Shown here one piece after another: positions 287 through 5,392 of a DNA stretch of 64,000 nucleotides (within the stretch, counting starts at the first letter, position 1; each line of letters opens with the position of its first letter). A program made the translations under genes and the position numbers. Below the pieces are notes generated by a model. The model was not told the DNA's origin, ran no database searches, and was given only the letters and a program-made list of their open reading frames with translations. The DNA comes from Macrostomum lignano (lineage: Eukaryota), in assembly GCA_002269645.1 (NCBI GenBank), contig NIVC01001157.1:1-64000 (forward strand), given 5' to 3'.

Positions 287-866
287 ATGGAAACTAATAA
301 GATTTGTACTAAGTGTAAACAAGAAAAACCGATGACGAAAGAATTTTATTTTTGGAGAAATGATTCAAAAAAATTTAGAAATGATTGTCGATCTTGTCAT
401 AATACCTCATCTGCTATTTGGATAAAAAACAATAAAGATAAATGGAATGAATATAGAAAAAATAAGTATCACACTGATGATAATTACAAACATATTGTTT
501 TAATTAGAAATAGAATAAATTGGGTTGAAAAATTTTAATGACAAGGACTATATCTCATATCTTGGTTGCACAAAAGAATTCTTTTTTGATTGGTTAAATT
601 TCACAAGAAATTATTATGTATCAAAAGATTATACTGGAAAGTTAGATATTGATCATTTCATTCCCGCTTCTTCGTTTAGTTACAAAGATGAAGATCAGAT
701 GAAAAAGTCTGAACATTGGACAAATAAAAGATACTTAACTAGCGTAGATAATAACTATAAAAAAGTTAAACAACCAACCATTGAAGAGTTTGCAAAACAA
801 TTGGTGCTTTCATGTATTTTTAAGGCTATTAAAAATGAGCAACCGAACGAAGTTCGCGAACCGTAG
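287..866 (+). pseudogene. HNH/endonuclease VII-like (homing-type) endonuclease, split by a 1-nt frameshift near 525-538
   Basis: ORF 287-538 has a CxxC...CxxC Zn knuckle (CTKC...CRSC). ORF 525-866 has YLGC...DIDHFIPASSF...HWTNKRYLTSVDNNYK, the pattern of viral HNH/endo VII-like nucleases. The two ORFs overlap at the run GAAAAATTTT. Confidence 0.7.
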
Positions 867-1851
867 GTTCGATCGGACGAAGTCCGCGTTCCTTCGGAAC
901 GATCAAATAGTGTTTGAAGGAGGATTGTTAGATGTTCAAAAAGGATTAACAAGCTTACCACCAATCTTTACTACTGGAAGGTATACTGGGGAACTACATT
1001 TACCATCAATGAACTTCACAGGTTAACCCGTGGCCTGAGTGAGGAAGGCAATGTCCTTGCTAGTCACTATTTGTGGCGACATCTCCAAATTGCGTGAAAC
1101 CCGTCATACTGCTTCAAGTACCACTTCAATTGAGAAATCTTTTGAAGGAACAGAGGTAACTCCTCTTCCCAAAGGTAAAAAGCTTGAAGACACGGTGGCA
1201 ATGCGCAGCCAAGCTCCTAAGTATTTTAAATATAAGGAGAAGGTTCAGAGAGCAGACGGAGATGGGCGGTAATTATCGCCGCTTAAGGTGTGCTCCAGCC
1301 TCTTTCGAAAGATTGAGGGTAAACTACCCGGCACTCGCTTAGATTTGAGATTAAATCCTGATGACACCCCAAAAGCCGATTCAATTCCCATAAATGGAAT
1401 TGATTGGTTAGCATACTATCATGACTTAGCATACAGAGATGCTGATAAGAACACACCCGAGGAAGCATTAAGATTAAAACATGAAGCCGATCAAAAAATG
1501 ATTCAAGGATTAGATAACTTGCAGGGATTATCGGTAGGTCAAAAATTAACTAGGTGGATGGTTAAAAAGATCTTGCAGTCTAAAGTTAAATTTGGTTTAG
1601 GAATTAATTATAATCAACATGGAAATAATTGTGTTGAGTGTTTGTTGTTAAGTGGCGGCGGGTTAAGTTCTGATGAGGCAAAGATTCTTCATAAAGAATA
1701 TCGAAAACCTAAATTTTATAGAAAAATCATGAACTTCAAAAAGAATGAAATTTGGTATGCTGATTTAATGTCGATGCCGAACGAAAGAGGATATAAATAT
1801 ATCTTAACCATATTAGATGGTTTTACTCGATACGCGTGGCTGTTCCTTTAA
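835..1851 (+). CDS. Parvovirus-type phospholipase A2 domain protein, spliced join(835..1023,1327..1851), continuing into the integrase N-terminus
   Basis: Removing 1024-1326 gives ...GELHLPSMNFTG|PGTRLDLRL...PINGIDWLAYYHDLAY...HEADQKM. This restores the Ca2+-loop GPG, the catalytic HDxxY and the downstream AD motif of parvoviral/adintoviral PLA2. Confidence 0.85.
844..901. other. Four back-to-back C-GNA-G triloop DNA mini-hairpins
   Basis: CGAAC-GAA-GTTCG (844-856), CGAACC-GTA-GGTTCG (857-871), CGGAC-GAA-GTCCG (874-886), and CGTTCC-TTC-GGAACG (887-901; GAA loop on the minus strand). Confidence 0.8.
1024..1326 (+). ncRNA. Group I self-splicing intron, subgroup IC1, 303 nt, no internal ORF
   Basis: P1: exon CAGGU pairs with IGS GCCUG (1033-1037) through a U.G pair. 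P3: CATCTCC 1080-1086 / GGAGATG 1258-1264. P4: TGCGTG 1091-1096 / TGCGCA 1202-1207. P5abc has an A-rich bulge and a GAAA loop (1134-1137). P6a/b carries CCTAAG. P7: G-A-GAGCA 1248-1254 / TGCTCC 1291-1296. P8: GGCGGT/ATCGCC. P9.0: AG 1297-1298 / CT 1324-1325. Removal restores the PLA2 frame and motif. Confidence 0.92.
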
Positions 1852-2724: not shown

Positions 2725-3039
2725 TCACATAAAAATTTCACTTTCATTCTCTGAATCACTGGTTTCATATGAACTATTTGTTGATTCGGAATCTGTTGAT
2801 CTAACCTCCCAATCATCCGAATTTAAATAATCTCCAAGTTGAAATATTAACTCACCCTCTTGTTCTAAATCATACATCTCATCTAGCTCTAATGGATAAA
2901 GCTTTAGGTCATGCTTGTCGTCATATTTTAAATAAACTTCATCAATTATTCCATTCAAAATATGTTGTTTTATTATCTCTGCATTTTTAGCAACAGTCTC
3001 AAAAGTATCACTAACAGAAAAGGTGTAAACTCGGGTCAT
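2725..3039 (-). CDS. Polinton hypothetical protein with an acidic C-terminus
   Basis: 104-aa ATG-initiated ORF with a D/E/S-rich tail, same composition as the other element genes. Confidence 0.55.
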   Translation of the reverse strand: MTRVYTFSVSDTFETVAKNAEIIKQHILNGIIDEVYLKYDDKHDLKLYPLELDEMYDLEQEGELIFQLGDYLNSDDWEVRSTDSESTNSSYETSDSENESEIFM

Positions 3040-3093: not shown

Positions 3094-3364
3094 AGTAGTA
3101 GTATAGAAAAAGACGCTTCTAGATCAGACCTTATTTTAATGGCCGTTTGTAAGGTCTTAAGAGGGGGGACACGGGGGGGGTGTTGGGGAGTGTTTGGAAG
3201 TGTTTGGAAGTGATTTTTATTGTTAGGGGTGATTATGGGTGATTAGATGTATTAATGGTGTTTAGATGTGTTTTTTTATTTACCCCCCGTGTCCCCCCTC
3301 TAGACCCTTAAAACGGTCATTAAAAAAGTGCTCTGGGTCTAGAAGCGTCTTTTTATATACTACT
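3094..3364. repeat. Terminal imperfect inverted repeat (about 84-bp arms, about 100-bp spacer) with AGTAGT...ACTACT ends
   Basis: 3097 AGTAGTATAGAAAAAGACGCTTCTAGA...GAGGGGGGACACGGGGGG is mirrored by CCCCCCGTGTCCCCCCTC...TCTAGAAGCGTCTTTTTATATACTACT 3364. Confidence 0.85.
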
Positions 3365-5392
3365 AACAGTAAAGCGATTTCTAATCAGAGCTAGTGTTGC
3401 TAAGCAATTTTTAAATCAATGTATGTCAGAAGGATTTTTACTTCAGTTAATAAATTAAAGCTTATTTGACGCCCAACACTTGCGTAAGTATTTGCCAAAA
3501 AGATGGTTGAAGCGGGTCAATTTTGTTTAAAGTTACAGACGATCGTTTCGAATGTCTGTCTGAATATCTCTCGTGAAACCCTCACATTCTAAACAAGACT
3601 CAAGAGAAATTGCACTCTGAGCCTTAAAATCGCACTTTGAAATTTGGCACAAGGTGCGATTTCGCACCTTATCTCTGGCGAAAAAAAAAACCCAGGTCGC
3701 AGCACTGGCATGCAATTCTGCACAGTTGGTACCACCCTGTGCAAGGACATTTAGAATTATGCATTTAGTTAAGCAGCTTAAGCTATATTATGACCCGACA
3801 ACTGACAGACTAGGAGCTGACACGCGCAGGAAATCTGATACCTTATGTCCAGGCCCCTTTATATACTACAGAAGGCTTTCTTTCTTCAGCATAGTCAATC
3901 AATCGGCATAATAAATAATAAAACAGTTGCACTAATAATGTATTATGATTTTAGACTTAAATACACTCACCGGAAATTTTGTCCACACTGCAATCGGAAC
4001 TGTGATGCGCCATTTGAAATAATAGTAGTCTGCCTGTTCGAGGAACTCAATTTCTTGATTACTTGCTTAACTAGCTTTCTTTCTTGCTTTAAATCCCCGG
4101 TACTTCACCGCACTCCTATAATTTTCTATTCCTACTGGCTGCGTGCGGCGGTTTTGGGGTGGTTGGCTTGCCTCTACCCCTCTGTCCCGGCAAAAGGATA
4201 GGGATGGAACGATTCTTATTGGCTAAGACCGCCTAGCCAATAGGAGAGCTCTAAATTTAAACTTGAATGAACAAGACCTGTATTATCTACGAGACTTCGT
4301 AGCACAGCTAATGTTTACTGCACCTAAAACTGACAAAGTCACATAATCTTTATAAGCCAATAAGGATTACTCTATAAATACATATTCACGTTGTCTGTAG
4401 ACTATATAATATGTATTTTTACTATAATAATGCCAATGGTGCTCGACGCTTTACTCTTGCTCTCTTCTTGATCTTTCAAGTGCCCAGCTGTGTCTATTTA
4501 CTCGTTGCGGCTAAAATATGGTTACGCGAATATTTCTACACGTATGCAGTCTGTTCAGTTCGATTTTGGTGCACATGATTATTGACTTTGTCAAACATCT
4601 GCAAAGCCTTAGTAAAAATATTATTACTGGGGCCAGCTAAAACTATAAAGGCGATTAGAAAGTTAAGCAAACTTCGGACCTCAATATTATTTACTTGGCT
4701 CAACTAAAAAAGTCAACGAGTCAAGGACTGGCAGTGTTGAAAATGAATAACACTACACAGTTTGTCTATACAAGTGAAATAAGTAAACATTTGATCGGCT
4801 GACTTTTCGCACCTTAACCTCGACACGCCTTTACAATGGCCTCGAACGAAACACGGGGAATTAAAAAGGATTTAGATTGAGGAAGGACTGCATTGTCATT
4901 GTTGGTCTCACTCCCCAGTGAGGTGGAACAGCATGGTGCACCAGTGTGGGGTCGGTGCTAAAACCCAAACCATATTTTGGGCTGAATTCCAATGAATATT
5001 GTGCAACCAAATTTGAATTATCCGTGAGACTTAGCAAATATGATATGCTCCTGCACTGAAGGTGTTGATGCAAGGCAAAAAAGAATCAGAAAGCTTATTA
5101 TGTTTTAAGCCAATCTCATTAATGAAATCATTTTCGTCTCATTGAACCAGTGAAGTTTAAATACTCAAATAATGGATTGCTTGAACCAGGCCAAATTCTT
5201 TCTAGTGTAAAATTTGACCCAAATTAGAATTTTACCTGAGTGCACATGGCAACAAACTCGGACTATTTTAGTTCAGCTCGAACACCATTGCTACATGTAT
5301 AGGACATTTTTACTAATATGATTCATTACAATCTAAATTTTCTAATAGCAGATGGTCAGTGAAAAAAACAGCCGGTGGATGAGACAGTGCAG

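Follow-up and report, generated by a model that had tools for sequence, protein, structure and literature searches.

A group I intron splits the PLA2-integrase gene of an animal Polinton and may be the protective half of a nuclease-intron system

Nuclear group I introns have been described as confined to the rRNA genes of microbial eukaryotes (PMC3679873), and a 2025 database gives those of animals only from placozoans, corals and sponges, where they are mostly mitochondrial (PMC11835236), in agreement with a further account of animal mitogenomes (PMC9240083). What, then, is the 303-nt insert that divides a protein-coding gene on a contig of Macrostomum lignano, and what could have kept it there? 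The sequence that raises this question, hereafter the window, is a stretch of 64,000 nucleotides (contig NIVC01001157.1, positions 1 to 64,000), for which an earlier note, made from the letters alone, had proposed a ribozyme intron acquired by a Polinton. We find that positions 1024-1326 are a group I intron. The gene that it interrupts, a PLA2-integrase fusion, belongs to a Polinton of which the nuclear genome of this animal contains many copies. Three features that the earlier note had missed, an Eco47II-like nuclease, the avoidance of GGNCC and a terminal A, bear on the second part of the question.

The intron (1024-1326, forward strand) is 303 nt long, IC1-like, without an ORF of its own, and its last base is A. 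In a scan of 1000-1350 the Rfam model RF00028 matches positions 1014-1317 with 62.1 bits (E 1.3e-15), the gathering score being 50, a significant result for the covariance-model search that the earlier note had recommended; a scan of 5 kb with the same model missed the intron. MFE folding gives a stability z of -2.2, with 0 of 100 shuffles equally stable. A natural allele in the same genome (L074) reads straight through Gly-Pro at the insertion point, so that both ends of the insert are fixed and its length is exactly 303 nt; the hunt for intron-less alleles thus succeeded (L074, and 20 found by pattern) and confirmed the proposed boundaries. When the helices are checked by coordinate, P1 (1019-1023/1033-1037, spanning 1019-1037) places the U1023.G1033 pair at the 5' splice site, P3 (1080-1086/1258-1264) forms 7 of its 7 pairs, and P4 (1091-1096/1202-1207), P5a, P5b, P5c, P6 and P6a, all lying with P3 in 1080-1264, pair as well, as do P7 (1248-1254/1291-1296, spanning 1248-1296) and, in 1297-1326 along with the terminal A, P9.0 (1297-1298/1324-1325) and P9 with its GAAA loop. 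P2, P2.1 and P8 are taken from the MFE fold, and P10 is possible, with 4 of 5 pairs between 1028-1032 and 1327-1331. The IC1 features present are P2.1 and P5abc (1112-1189) with its A-rich bulge and GAAA loop; CCUAAG has the variant UAAGG as its partner, and the short 3' end leaves room for neither P9.1 nor P9.2. In a comparison of 8 related introns the pairing holds in 96.4% of 411 cells, and in 28 of the 53 pairs both partners change. This level is reached by 0 of 500 shuffles and compares with 35-50% in slid controls; both controls are lenient, given that the window copy supplied the structure and that several of the 8 rows are close kin.

A search of the genome with RF00028 also yielded 28 scored loci of a second, sister intron family, which occupies the same Gly|Pro site, has the 3' strand of P1 and P2 in common with the window intron, possesses a different P7 and ends in G at 28 of 28 loci. 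The same gene and site hold an intron in a metagenome contig as well (L089; 80.6 bits, G-ending, canonical P7, with a nuclease ORF), and the single capture envisaged in the earlier note does not accord with this repeated occupation. Nor is the P7 helix GAGCA/UGCUC, which retains the guanosine-binding G-C pair (1250-1295), a peculiarity of the element: it recurs in three of the four viral-contig matches (giant-virus contigs L075, L076 and L078; the fourth, L077, is a chance match) and is thus a lineage trait. It is also found, by translation, in the homolog P0003. Three distal P7 pairs differ between the window and sister introns by double changes. The notion that the variant compensates for the terminal A was rejected, as the variant is present in G-ending copies too (4/30). 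In one of the giant-virus contigs (L075:1331-3100) a group I core with the same P7 follows a capsid gene that looks complete; an HNH-like ORF in antisense separates the two, and a capsid-tail-like stretch comes after the core. A giant-virus affinity of the ribozyme is a lead; a search of viral contigs with the P5abc pattern gave no match.

The gene that is interrupted starts with an ATG at 835. Sequence and copy comparison define its exon 1 (835-1023), and exon 2 (1327-2473) supplies, according to Pfam and copy comparison, the rest of the PLA2-like domain and an rve integrase, both exons being on the forward strand. The integrase family PF00665 is matched with 42.6 bits (cut-off 32.6) in the sister family and with 21.4 bits, below the cut-off, on the window fragment. 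The frame of exon 2 is broken in the window near 1837 and 2152, and it is open for 382 aa in 18 of the 30 copies examined. The fusion of PLA2 and integrase is a common architecture among the 120 homologs listed of 778. A search with PF08398 found 150 uninterrupted PLA2 domains among 426 candidates (frames of 128-337 aa), which were set aside as probably belonging to other genes. Just after the start codon the window carries a polymorphic palindromic insert (838-904, forward strand), in frame here and absent from the contigs of all four sequencing runs compared. Short palindromic inserts of about 15-63 nt, mostly multiples of 3, recur at this place, and the same type is present in peripheral intron loops of both families (L038, L054, L058, L090); they look like a tiny mobile hairpin element.

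Around this gene the window preserves one end of the Polinton. Upstream, on the forward strand, are the 3' end of a 223-aa Polinton ORF (2-259) and what we call the nuclease slot (287-866), here filled by an HNH-like ORF that is broken near 523-538 and overlaps the start of PLA2. This ORF (also L062:8472-9035) resembles unnamed viral proteins (protein-atlas 0.95-0.96); the nearest named family, PF01844 at 0.89, is no more than a lead. Downstream lie a small Polinton ORF of 104 aa on the reverse strand, without a Pfam match (2725-3039), and the element terminus, an imperfect hairpin of 270 nt (3096-3365) ending in an ACT-repeat terminal motif, present at both arms, with host DNA beyond. One end with this terminal motif was seen, in five copies. 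Other Polinton components come from further copies: an A32-type packaging ATPase (PF04665, 30.5 bits against a cut-off of 22.8, in copy C110), a capsid-like ORF and one polymerase-like fragment with a KxxxNxxYG motif. The polymerase-like fragment has no Pfam or PDB match; the capsid-like ORF has no Pfam capsid match, and its atlas neighbours (0.96-0.98) carry Capsid_N (23% of members) or DJR-like annotations (14%), with a recognition score below threshold. By eye, copies C110 and C896 (L064-L067) are rearranged, with an internal duplication in the former and a transposase-like insert in the latter. The last 25 kb of the window (38506-64000) is a tandem array of 30/60-nt units, 99% uniform.

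The sister introns are larger, roughly 850-900 nt, owing to an ORF inserted after P2 and running into the core, which is kept in full, at 211-228 aa, at 13 of the 28 loci. This ORF matches PF09553, RE_Eco47II (29.1 bits; cut-off 25.9), and possesses a PD-(D/E)xK motif and a restriction fold. The AF2 model of the nuclease (pLDDT 78) is closest to EcoO109I (Z 9.9, rmsd 4.4, 177 residues aligned), the only one of 48,161 chains with Z >= 8, and Foldseek places EcoO109I (E 7e-5) and AvaII (5e-4) among its relatives; the sequence identity to EcoO109I is only 13-14%, and a PDB sequence search with the nuclease profile gave no match. At about 165 aa the enzyme comprises its core alone, without an extra DNA-binding domain. 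EcoO109I recognizes RGGNCCY and AvaII GGWCC. To an Eco47II homolog the site GGNCC has been assigned (PMC10305163).

This nuclease is not restricted to the sister introns. It has 107 matches in the genome, 80 of which entered a coordinate crossing in which extra fragments at the same loci were dropped. In 36 of 150 exon-1 matches an Eco47II-like match ends 27-243 nt upstream of the exon, and 11 of these have the exact A-ending intron; beside the long uninterrupted frames there was none in 11 (9 of the 11 confirmed as intron-less), a contrast (36/139 vs 0/11) that is small and drawn from copies that are not independent. The long frames of C3031 and C1051 fell outside the intron-less pattern. At one locus (L090) the intron is that of the window apart from 2 substitutions and an insert of 30 nt, and upstream of it a free-standing Eco47II-like gene of 167 aa fills the slot held in the window by the HNH-like ORF; the latter may be a rival homing nuclease that displaced the Eco47II-like gene, and the window copy itself is without one. 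The free-standing nuclease and that of the metagenome contig fall below the Pfam cut-off (20.6 and 18.5 bits). No methylase lies beside the nuclease in L038, L089 or L090, and the element ORFs scanned, from incomplete elements, include no PF00145 match.

Relatives of the nuclease are numerous (293 representatives match overall). In nine of the 15 database homologs the terminal stretch reads as a translated group I core. Homologs of the nuclease and of the PLA2-integrase could be paired by equal lengths of their longest contigs, namely P0003/P0034 (4853), P0013/P0054 (14527), P0022/P0062 (65222), P0026/P0065 (18491) and P0032/P0057 (10272), a hint that these are further linked nuclease/PLA2-integrase loci in environmental assemblies. 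More distant homologs adjoin C5 methylases in giant-virus contigs (10 loci; PF00145 confirmed in the 2 tested). In a quick tree of 66 rows the free-standing enzyme of L090 groups with the intron-encoded sister enzyme (SH-aLRT 84), far from the restriction enzymes of giant viruses, and the tree identifies no donor. Searches of viral contigs returned no close relative of the nuclease with a single query and one weak match with exon 2, and Rfam found no intron near the giant-virus nuclease loci at the 6 scanned of 10.

Gly-Pro codons always spell GGNCC. The intron thus sits in such a site (1021-1328, forward strand), with the Gly codon at 1021-1023 and the Pro codon from 1327, and intron-less alleles, which persist in the same genome, keep the site intact; 20 of 20 found by pattern carry GGCCC. 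Elsewhere in the element the word is missing. Over 11.6 non-redundant kb GGNCC occurs 0 times against 10.4 expected, a count matched by 0 of 200 shuffles and the lowest of 32 palindromes, and 3675 element residues contain no Gly-Pro dipeptide where 7.6 were expected. GGNCC is absent from 30 of 30 window-family and 25 of 28 sister loci. Four long window-family copies have 0, 1, 0 and 0 occurrences where 12.8, 19.4, 11.8 and 13.6 were expected, and, as these copies are close kin, the depletion amounts to about one independent observation and a weak second. Local shuffles never reached zero (0/300), and with the protein sequence fixed, synonymous shuffles did so in 3/500 and 25/500 cases. The host flanks have 64 sites against 61.6 expected, and two intron-less Polintons from viral contigs, without a nuclease match, show 29 vs 30.2 (L091) and 16 vs 18.3 (L092). 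Other palindromes in the element are low as well (GGCC 3 vs 10.7, CTNAG 13 vs 29.4). In 120 homologous proteins Gly-Pro is also scarce (30 vs 72.4), but it ranks only 40th of 352 dipeptides and was not used as evidence. In the PLA2 loop of two homologs (P0074, P0078) Gly-Thr-Gly replaces Gly-Pro-Gly, possibly an intron-free escape from GGNCC.

The explanation that we consider probable is that the intron is the protective half of a nuclease-intron system, that is, of a methylase-free restriction-type weapon or homing system whose self-immunity would derive from site loss and from the intron. The Polinton population would encode an orphan nuclease of the Eco47II family that most likely cuts GGNCC; its gene is intronic in the sister family, whereas copies of the window family have it immediately before exon 1. 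In an element without a methylase this word would have been purged, Gly-Pro dipeptides included; the conserved Gly-Pro of the PLA2 calcium loop could presumably not be recoded, and here the intron would split the site in the DNA while splicing would restore Gly-Pro in the RNA. During lytic replication or co-infection the nuclease, if expressed, would cut intron-less rival Polintons at the insertion site, with homing or exclusion as the outcome, and it would also cut other GGNCC-rich DNA of the host or of a helper virus. The window copy would be an ORF-less, A-terminated member of this system, with an HNH-like gene in its upstream slot and its immunity kept. Judged on the predicted GGNCC target alone, the intron would indeed destroy the target that spans its insertion site.

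A difficulty for this protective role is that a 5-bp cutter should be toxic where the host's own GGNCC counts are normal; toxicity of this kind is what known homing enzymes avoid by their need for long sites (PMC3943268). Given these normal counts, the enzyme would have to be silent when integrated, or active only in the lytic phase or in some compartment. We advance more tentatively a fuller version of the proposal, which we find attractive without quite expecting it to hold in every part: an orphan GGNCC cutter would destroy rival Polintons, helper virus or host DNA, the element being immune by purge and intron, the free-standing and intronic stages would coexist in one genome, and the commonest copies would splice with a terminal A in animal nuclear mRNA.

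It is this last element, the A at 1326 in place of the usual G, that gives rise to the alternative which survives best. It is not the decay of a single window copy, an idea that was rejected: 60 of 80 exact 3'-end matches carry A and 20 carry G (10 of each of two kinds), with 0 in reversed controls. By the mechanism of group I splicing, a terminal A combined with an unchanged G-binding pair is expected to slow the second step, and since that pair is unchanged here, the second step should be slower. The A-ending family, window included, might then be splicing-dead or nearly so, a non-autonomous passenger that keeps its immunity to the nuclease and borrows the integrase in trans or starts translation downstream. 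To this one can add that the full frame of exon 2 is missing in 12 of 30 copies, the window among them, and that one contig of run X2, a run only guessed to be RNA, spans both intron junctions unspliced. No exon junction that skips 1024-1326 was found among 5 joints in contigs of 4 runs from 4 studies aligned to 250-2600; contigs drop rare forms, and this is hence no evidence of absence. None of the runs that contain the stretch is listed as RNA, and 14 are only guessed to be. Opposed to a dead intron are the abundance of the terminal A on exon-1 backgrounds of 64% to 100% identity, the intact P9.0, and the constraint on the exons of A-ending copies, which show 13 synonymous and 3 non-synonymous changes in exon 1 (8 distinct sequences) and 11 and 3 in the PLA2 segment before the first Met (5 distinct sequences), or a pN/pS of about 0.08 in both, a selection signal that may predate the terminal A. 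A precedent exists, moreover, in the ND5-717 intron of the sea anemone Stichodactyla haddoni, which is A-terminated and spliced in vivo (PMC8146996); it shares with the window intron the terminal A in place of G and an animal host, whereas it is mitochondrial and obligatory and the intron described here is nuclear, proviral and polymorphic. We regard loss of splicing in this family as possible, if rather doubtful, and it would be compatible with a protective role of the intron.

A second alternative concerns the nuclease itself. The Eco47II-fold protein could be a conventional, long-site homing endonuclease centred on the Gly-Pro codons, the avoidance of GGNCC being due to some outside agent such as a helper giant virus with its restriction-modification system. 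I-Ssp6803I is an example of a PD-(D/E)xK homing endonuclease, and it reads a long site. The existence of such enzymes (PMC3943268) favours this possibility, as do the Eco47II-like genes adjoining C5 methylases in giant-virus contigs, the fact that other palindromes in the element are low too, and the ease with which the problem of host toxicity is removed; one of these contigs (L088, GC-rich, with both an Eco47II-like gene and a C5 methylase) is itself GGNCC-poor, with 18 sites against 67.9. But the nuclease is a bare core that lacks a further DNA-binding domain, the sole word at zero is the one that its family and fold predict, and GGNCC is not avoided in the two related Polintons that lack the nuclease. 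The word counts argue for a short rather than a long recognition site, and we think conventional homing unlikely to be the explanation.

Two further alternatives fare much worse. Removal of the insert by the animal's spliceosome instead of the ribozyme could make use of a GT at 1022-1023 and of one AG, ending at 1342, that keeps the frame; it is very improbable, as a cut at that AG would delete conserved residues of the PLA2 loop, which remain conserved, the remaining five of the six AGs in the vicinity do not keep the frame, and the ribozyme core covaries. The least credible possibility, that contaminating DNA of a protist or virus was joined to the end of an animal contig and makes up the element, was raised by the earlier note as a way in which its claim might fail, and would suit a window that begins inside the element at the contig start and close relatives that come from environmental assemblies, but it is largely refuted by 40 scored copies of the intron region on many contigs (96-100% identity, among 220 candidates in the genome), by five copies that share the terminal motif at their ends while their flanks differ (one beside a linker histone gene, one beside an RT fragment), by three contigs (C67, C506, C952) that carry both Wnt exons and the intron, by 13 of 13 scored 18S copies that score alike and by the presence of a stretch of the window in 19 runs of 7 studies under one organism label. 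The Wnt exons, with 86 matches in a genome of 764 Mb and 5269 contigs, and the single 18S type identify the genome as that of an animal, and integration of the Polinton in the nuclear genome, as originally proposed, stands. For a finer placement of the host, PF00379 and bantam gave 0 matches each, but their controls were silent too, so that neither is informative. The Wnt exons occur in near-identical sets of two to four on different contigs, which suggests unmerged haplotypes or duplication, by which copy counts are possibly inflated.

How does this locus compare with systems already known? The earlier note believed group I introns to be undescribed from Polintons; they have in fact been reported in Polinton-like viruses of protists (Paulinella, Desmodesmus, Rhodomonas), where, as here, integrated Polinton-type elements carry RF00028 introns in their protein genes, with lengths of about 300-380 nt (PMC12220804). 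The present case differs in its animal host, its PLA2-integrase gene and its linked restriction-type nuclease, the protist introns being without an annotated nuclease in the available text of that report. Adintoviruses, or animal Polintons with PLA2X, likewise possess an rve integrase, a packaging ATPase, a PLA2-like domain and a capsid-like gene (PMC8502044); here, in contrast, PLA2 is fused to the integrase and split by a ribozyme, and the accessible part of that account makes no mention of a group I intron. The closest parallel in principle is Bodo saltans virus, where an intron conceals the target of a nuclease within a gene essential to the virus, introns without an ORF depend on nuclease supplied in trans, and interference competition, by homing or exclusion, has been proposed (PMC5871332). 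Its nucleases are HNH or GIY-YIG, the portion of the paper at hand reports no element-wide purge of sites, and it is a cytoplasmic giant virus rather than an element of animal chromosomes. Collaborative homing (Zeng, Bonocora and Shub 2009, as cited in PMC11296320) similarly couples a free-standing nuclease to an intron without an ORF and includes an intron-encoded state as well; here both states are found in one eukaryotic genome, the enzyme belongs to a type II restriction family, and Eco47II-like and HNH-like genes alternate in the slot. The PD-(D/E)xK homing endonucleases resemble the sister enzyme in having a restriction-like fold within a group I intron (PMC3943268), but read long sites, whereas family, fold and word counts here point to one of 5 bp. 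Restriction-modification systems of the Eco47II/Sau96I type, giant-virus pairs included, use the same nuclease family and the same predicted GGNCC site (PMC10305163); in the Polinton DNA examined there is no methylase, and protection apparently comes from site loss and intron. In a literature search of mostly open-access sources, as far as their available text extends, we found neither an Eco47II-type nuclease in a group I intron nor a nuclear protein gene of an animal that carries a group I intron, and the sections consulted of four works on PLA2X, nucleases, collaborative homing or possible restriction systems (PMC8502044, PMC10748475, PMC11296320, preprint 10.64898/2026.10.13.758929) contain no such intron in an animal Polinton. 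The likeness to earlier systems, then, is intron-masked nuclease competition; the restriction-family enzyme, the element-wide loss of sites, the free-standing and intronic stages and the animal nuclear setting set it apart.

The presence of dozens of copies in a protein gene on animal chromosomes makes it testable whether a group I ribozyme splices animal nuclear mRNA, and the natural A-ending and G-ending copies of one intron offer a ready comparison. If the link to the nuclease is true, the intron is of benefit to the element that hosts it, a restriction enzyme acts as a nuclease of intron mobility or competition, and the path that has been proposed to lead from a free-standing nuclease to an intron-encoded one has been caught at both its stages in one genome. 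Polinton-like viruses have many nucleases without an explanation, and one of them would thereby acquire a concrete predicted target. The system as a whole suggests that this element protects itself by a ribozyme rather than by methylation.
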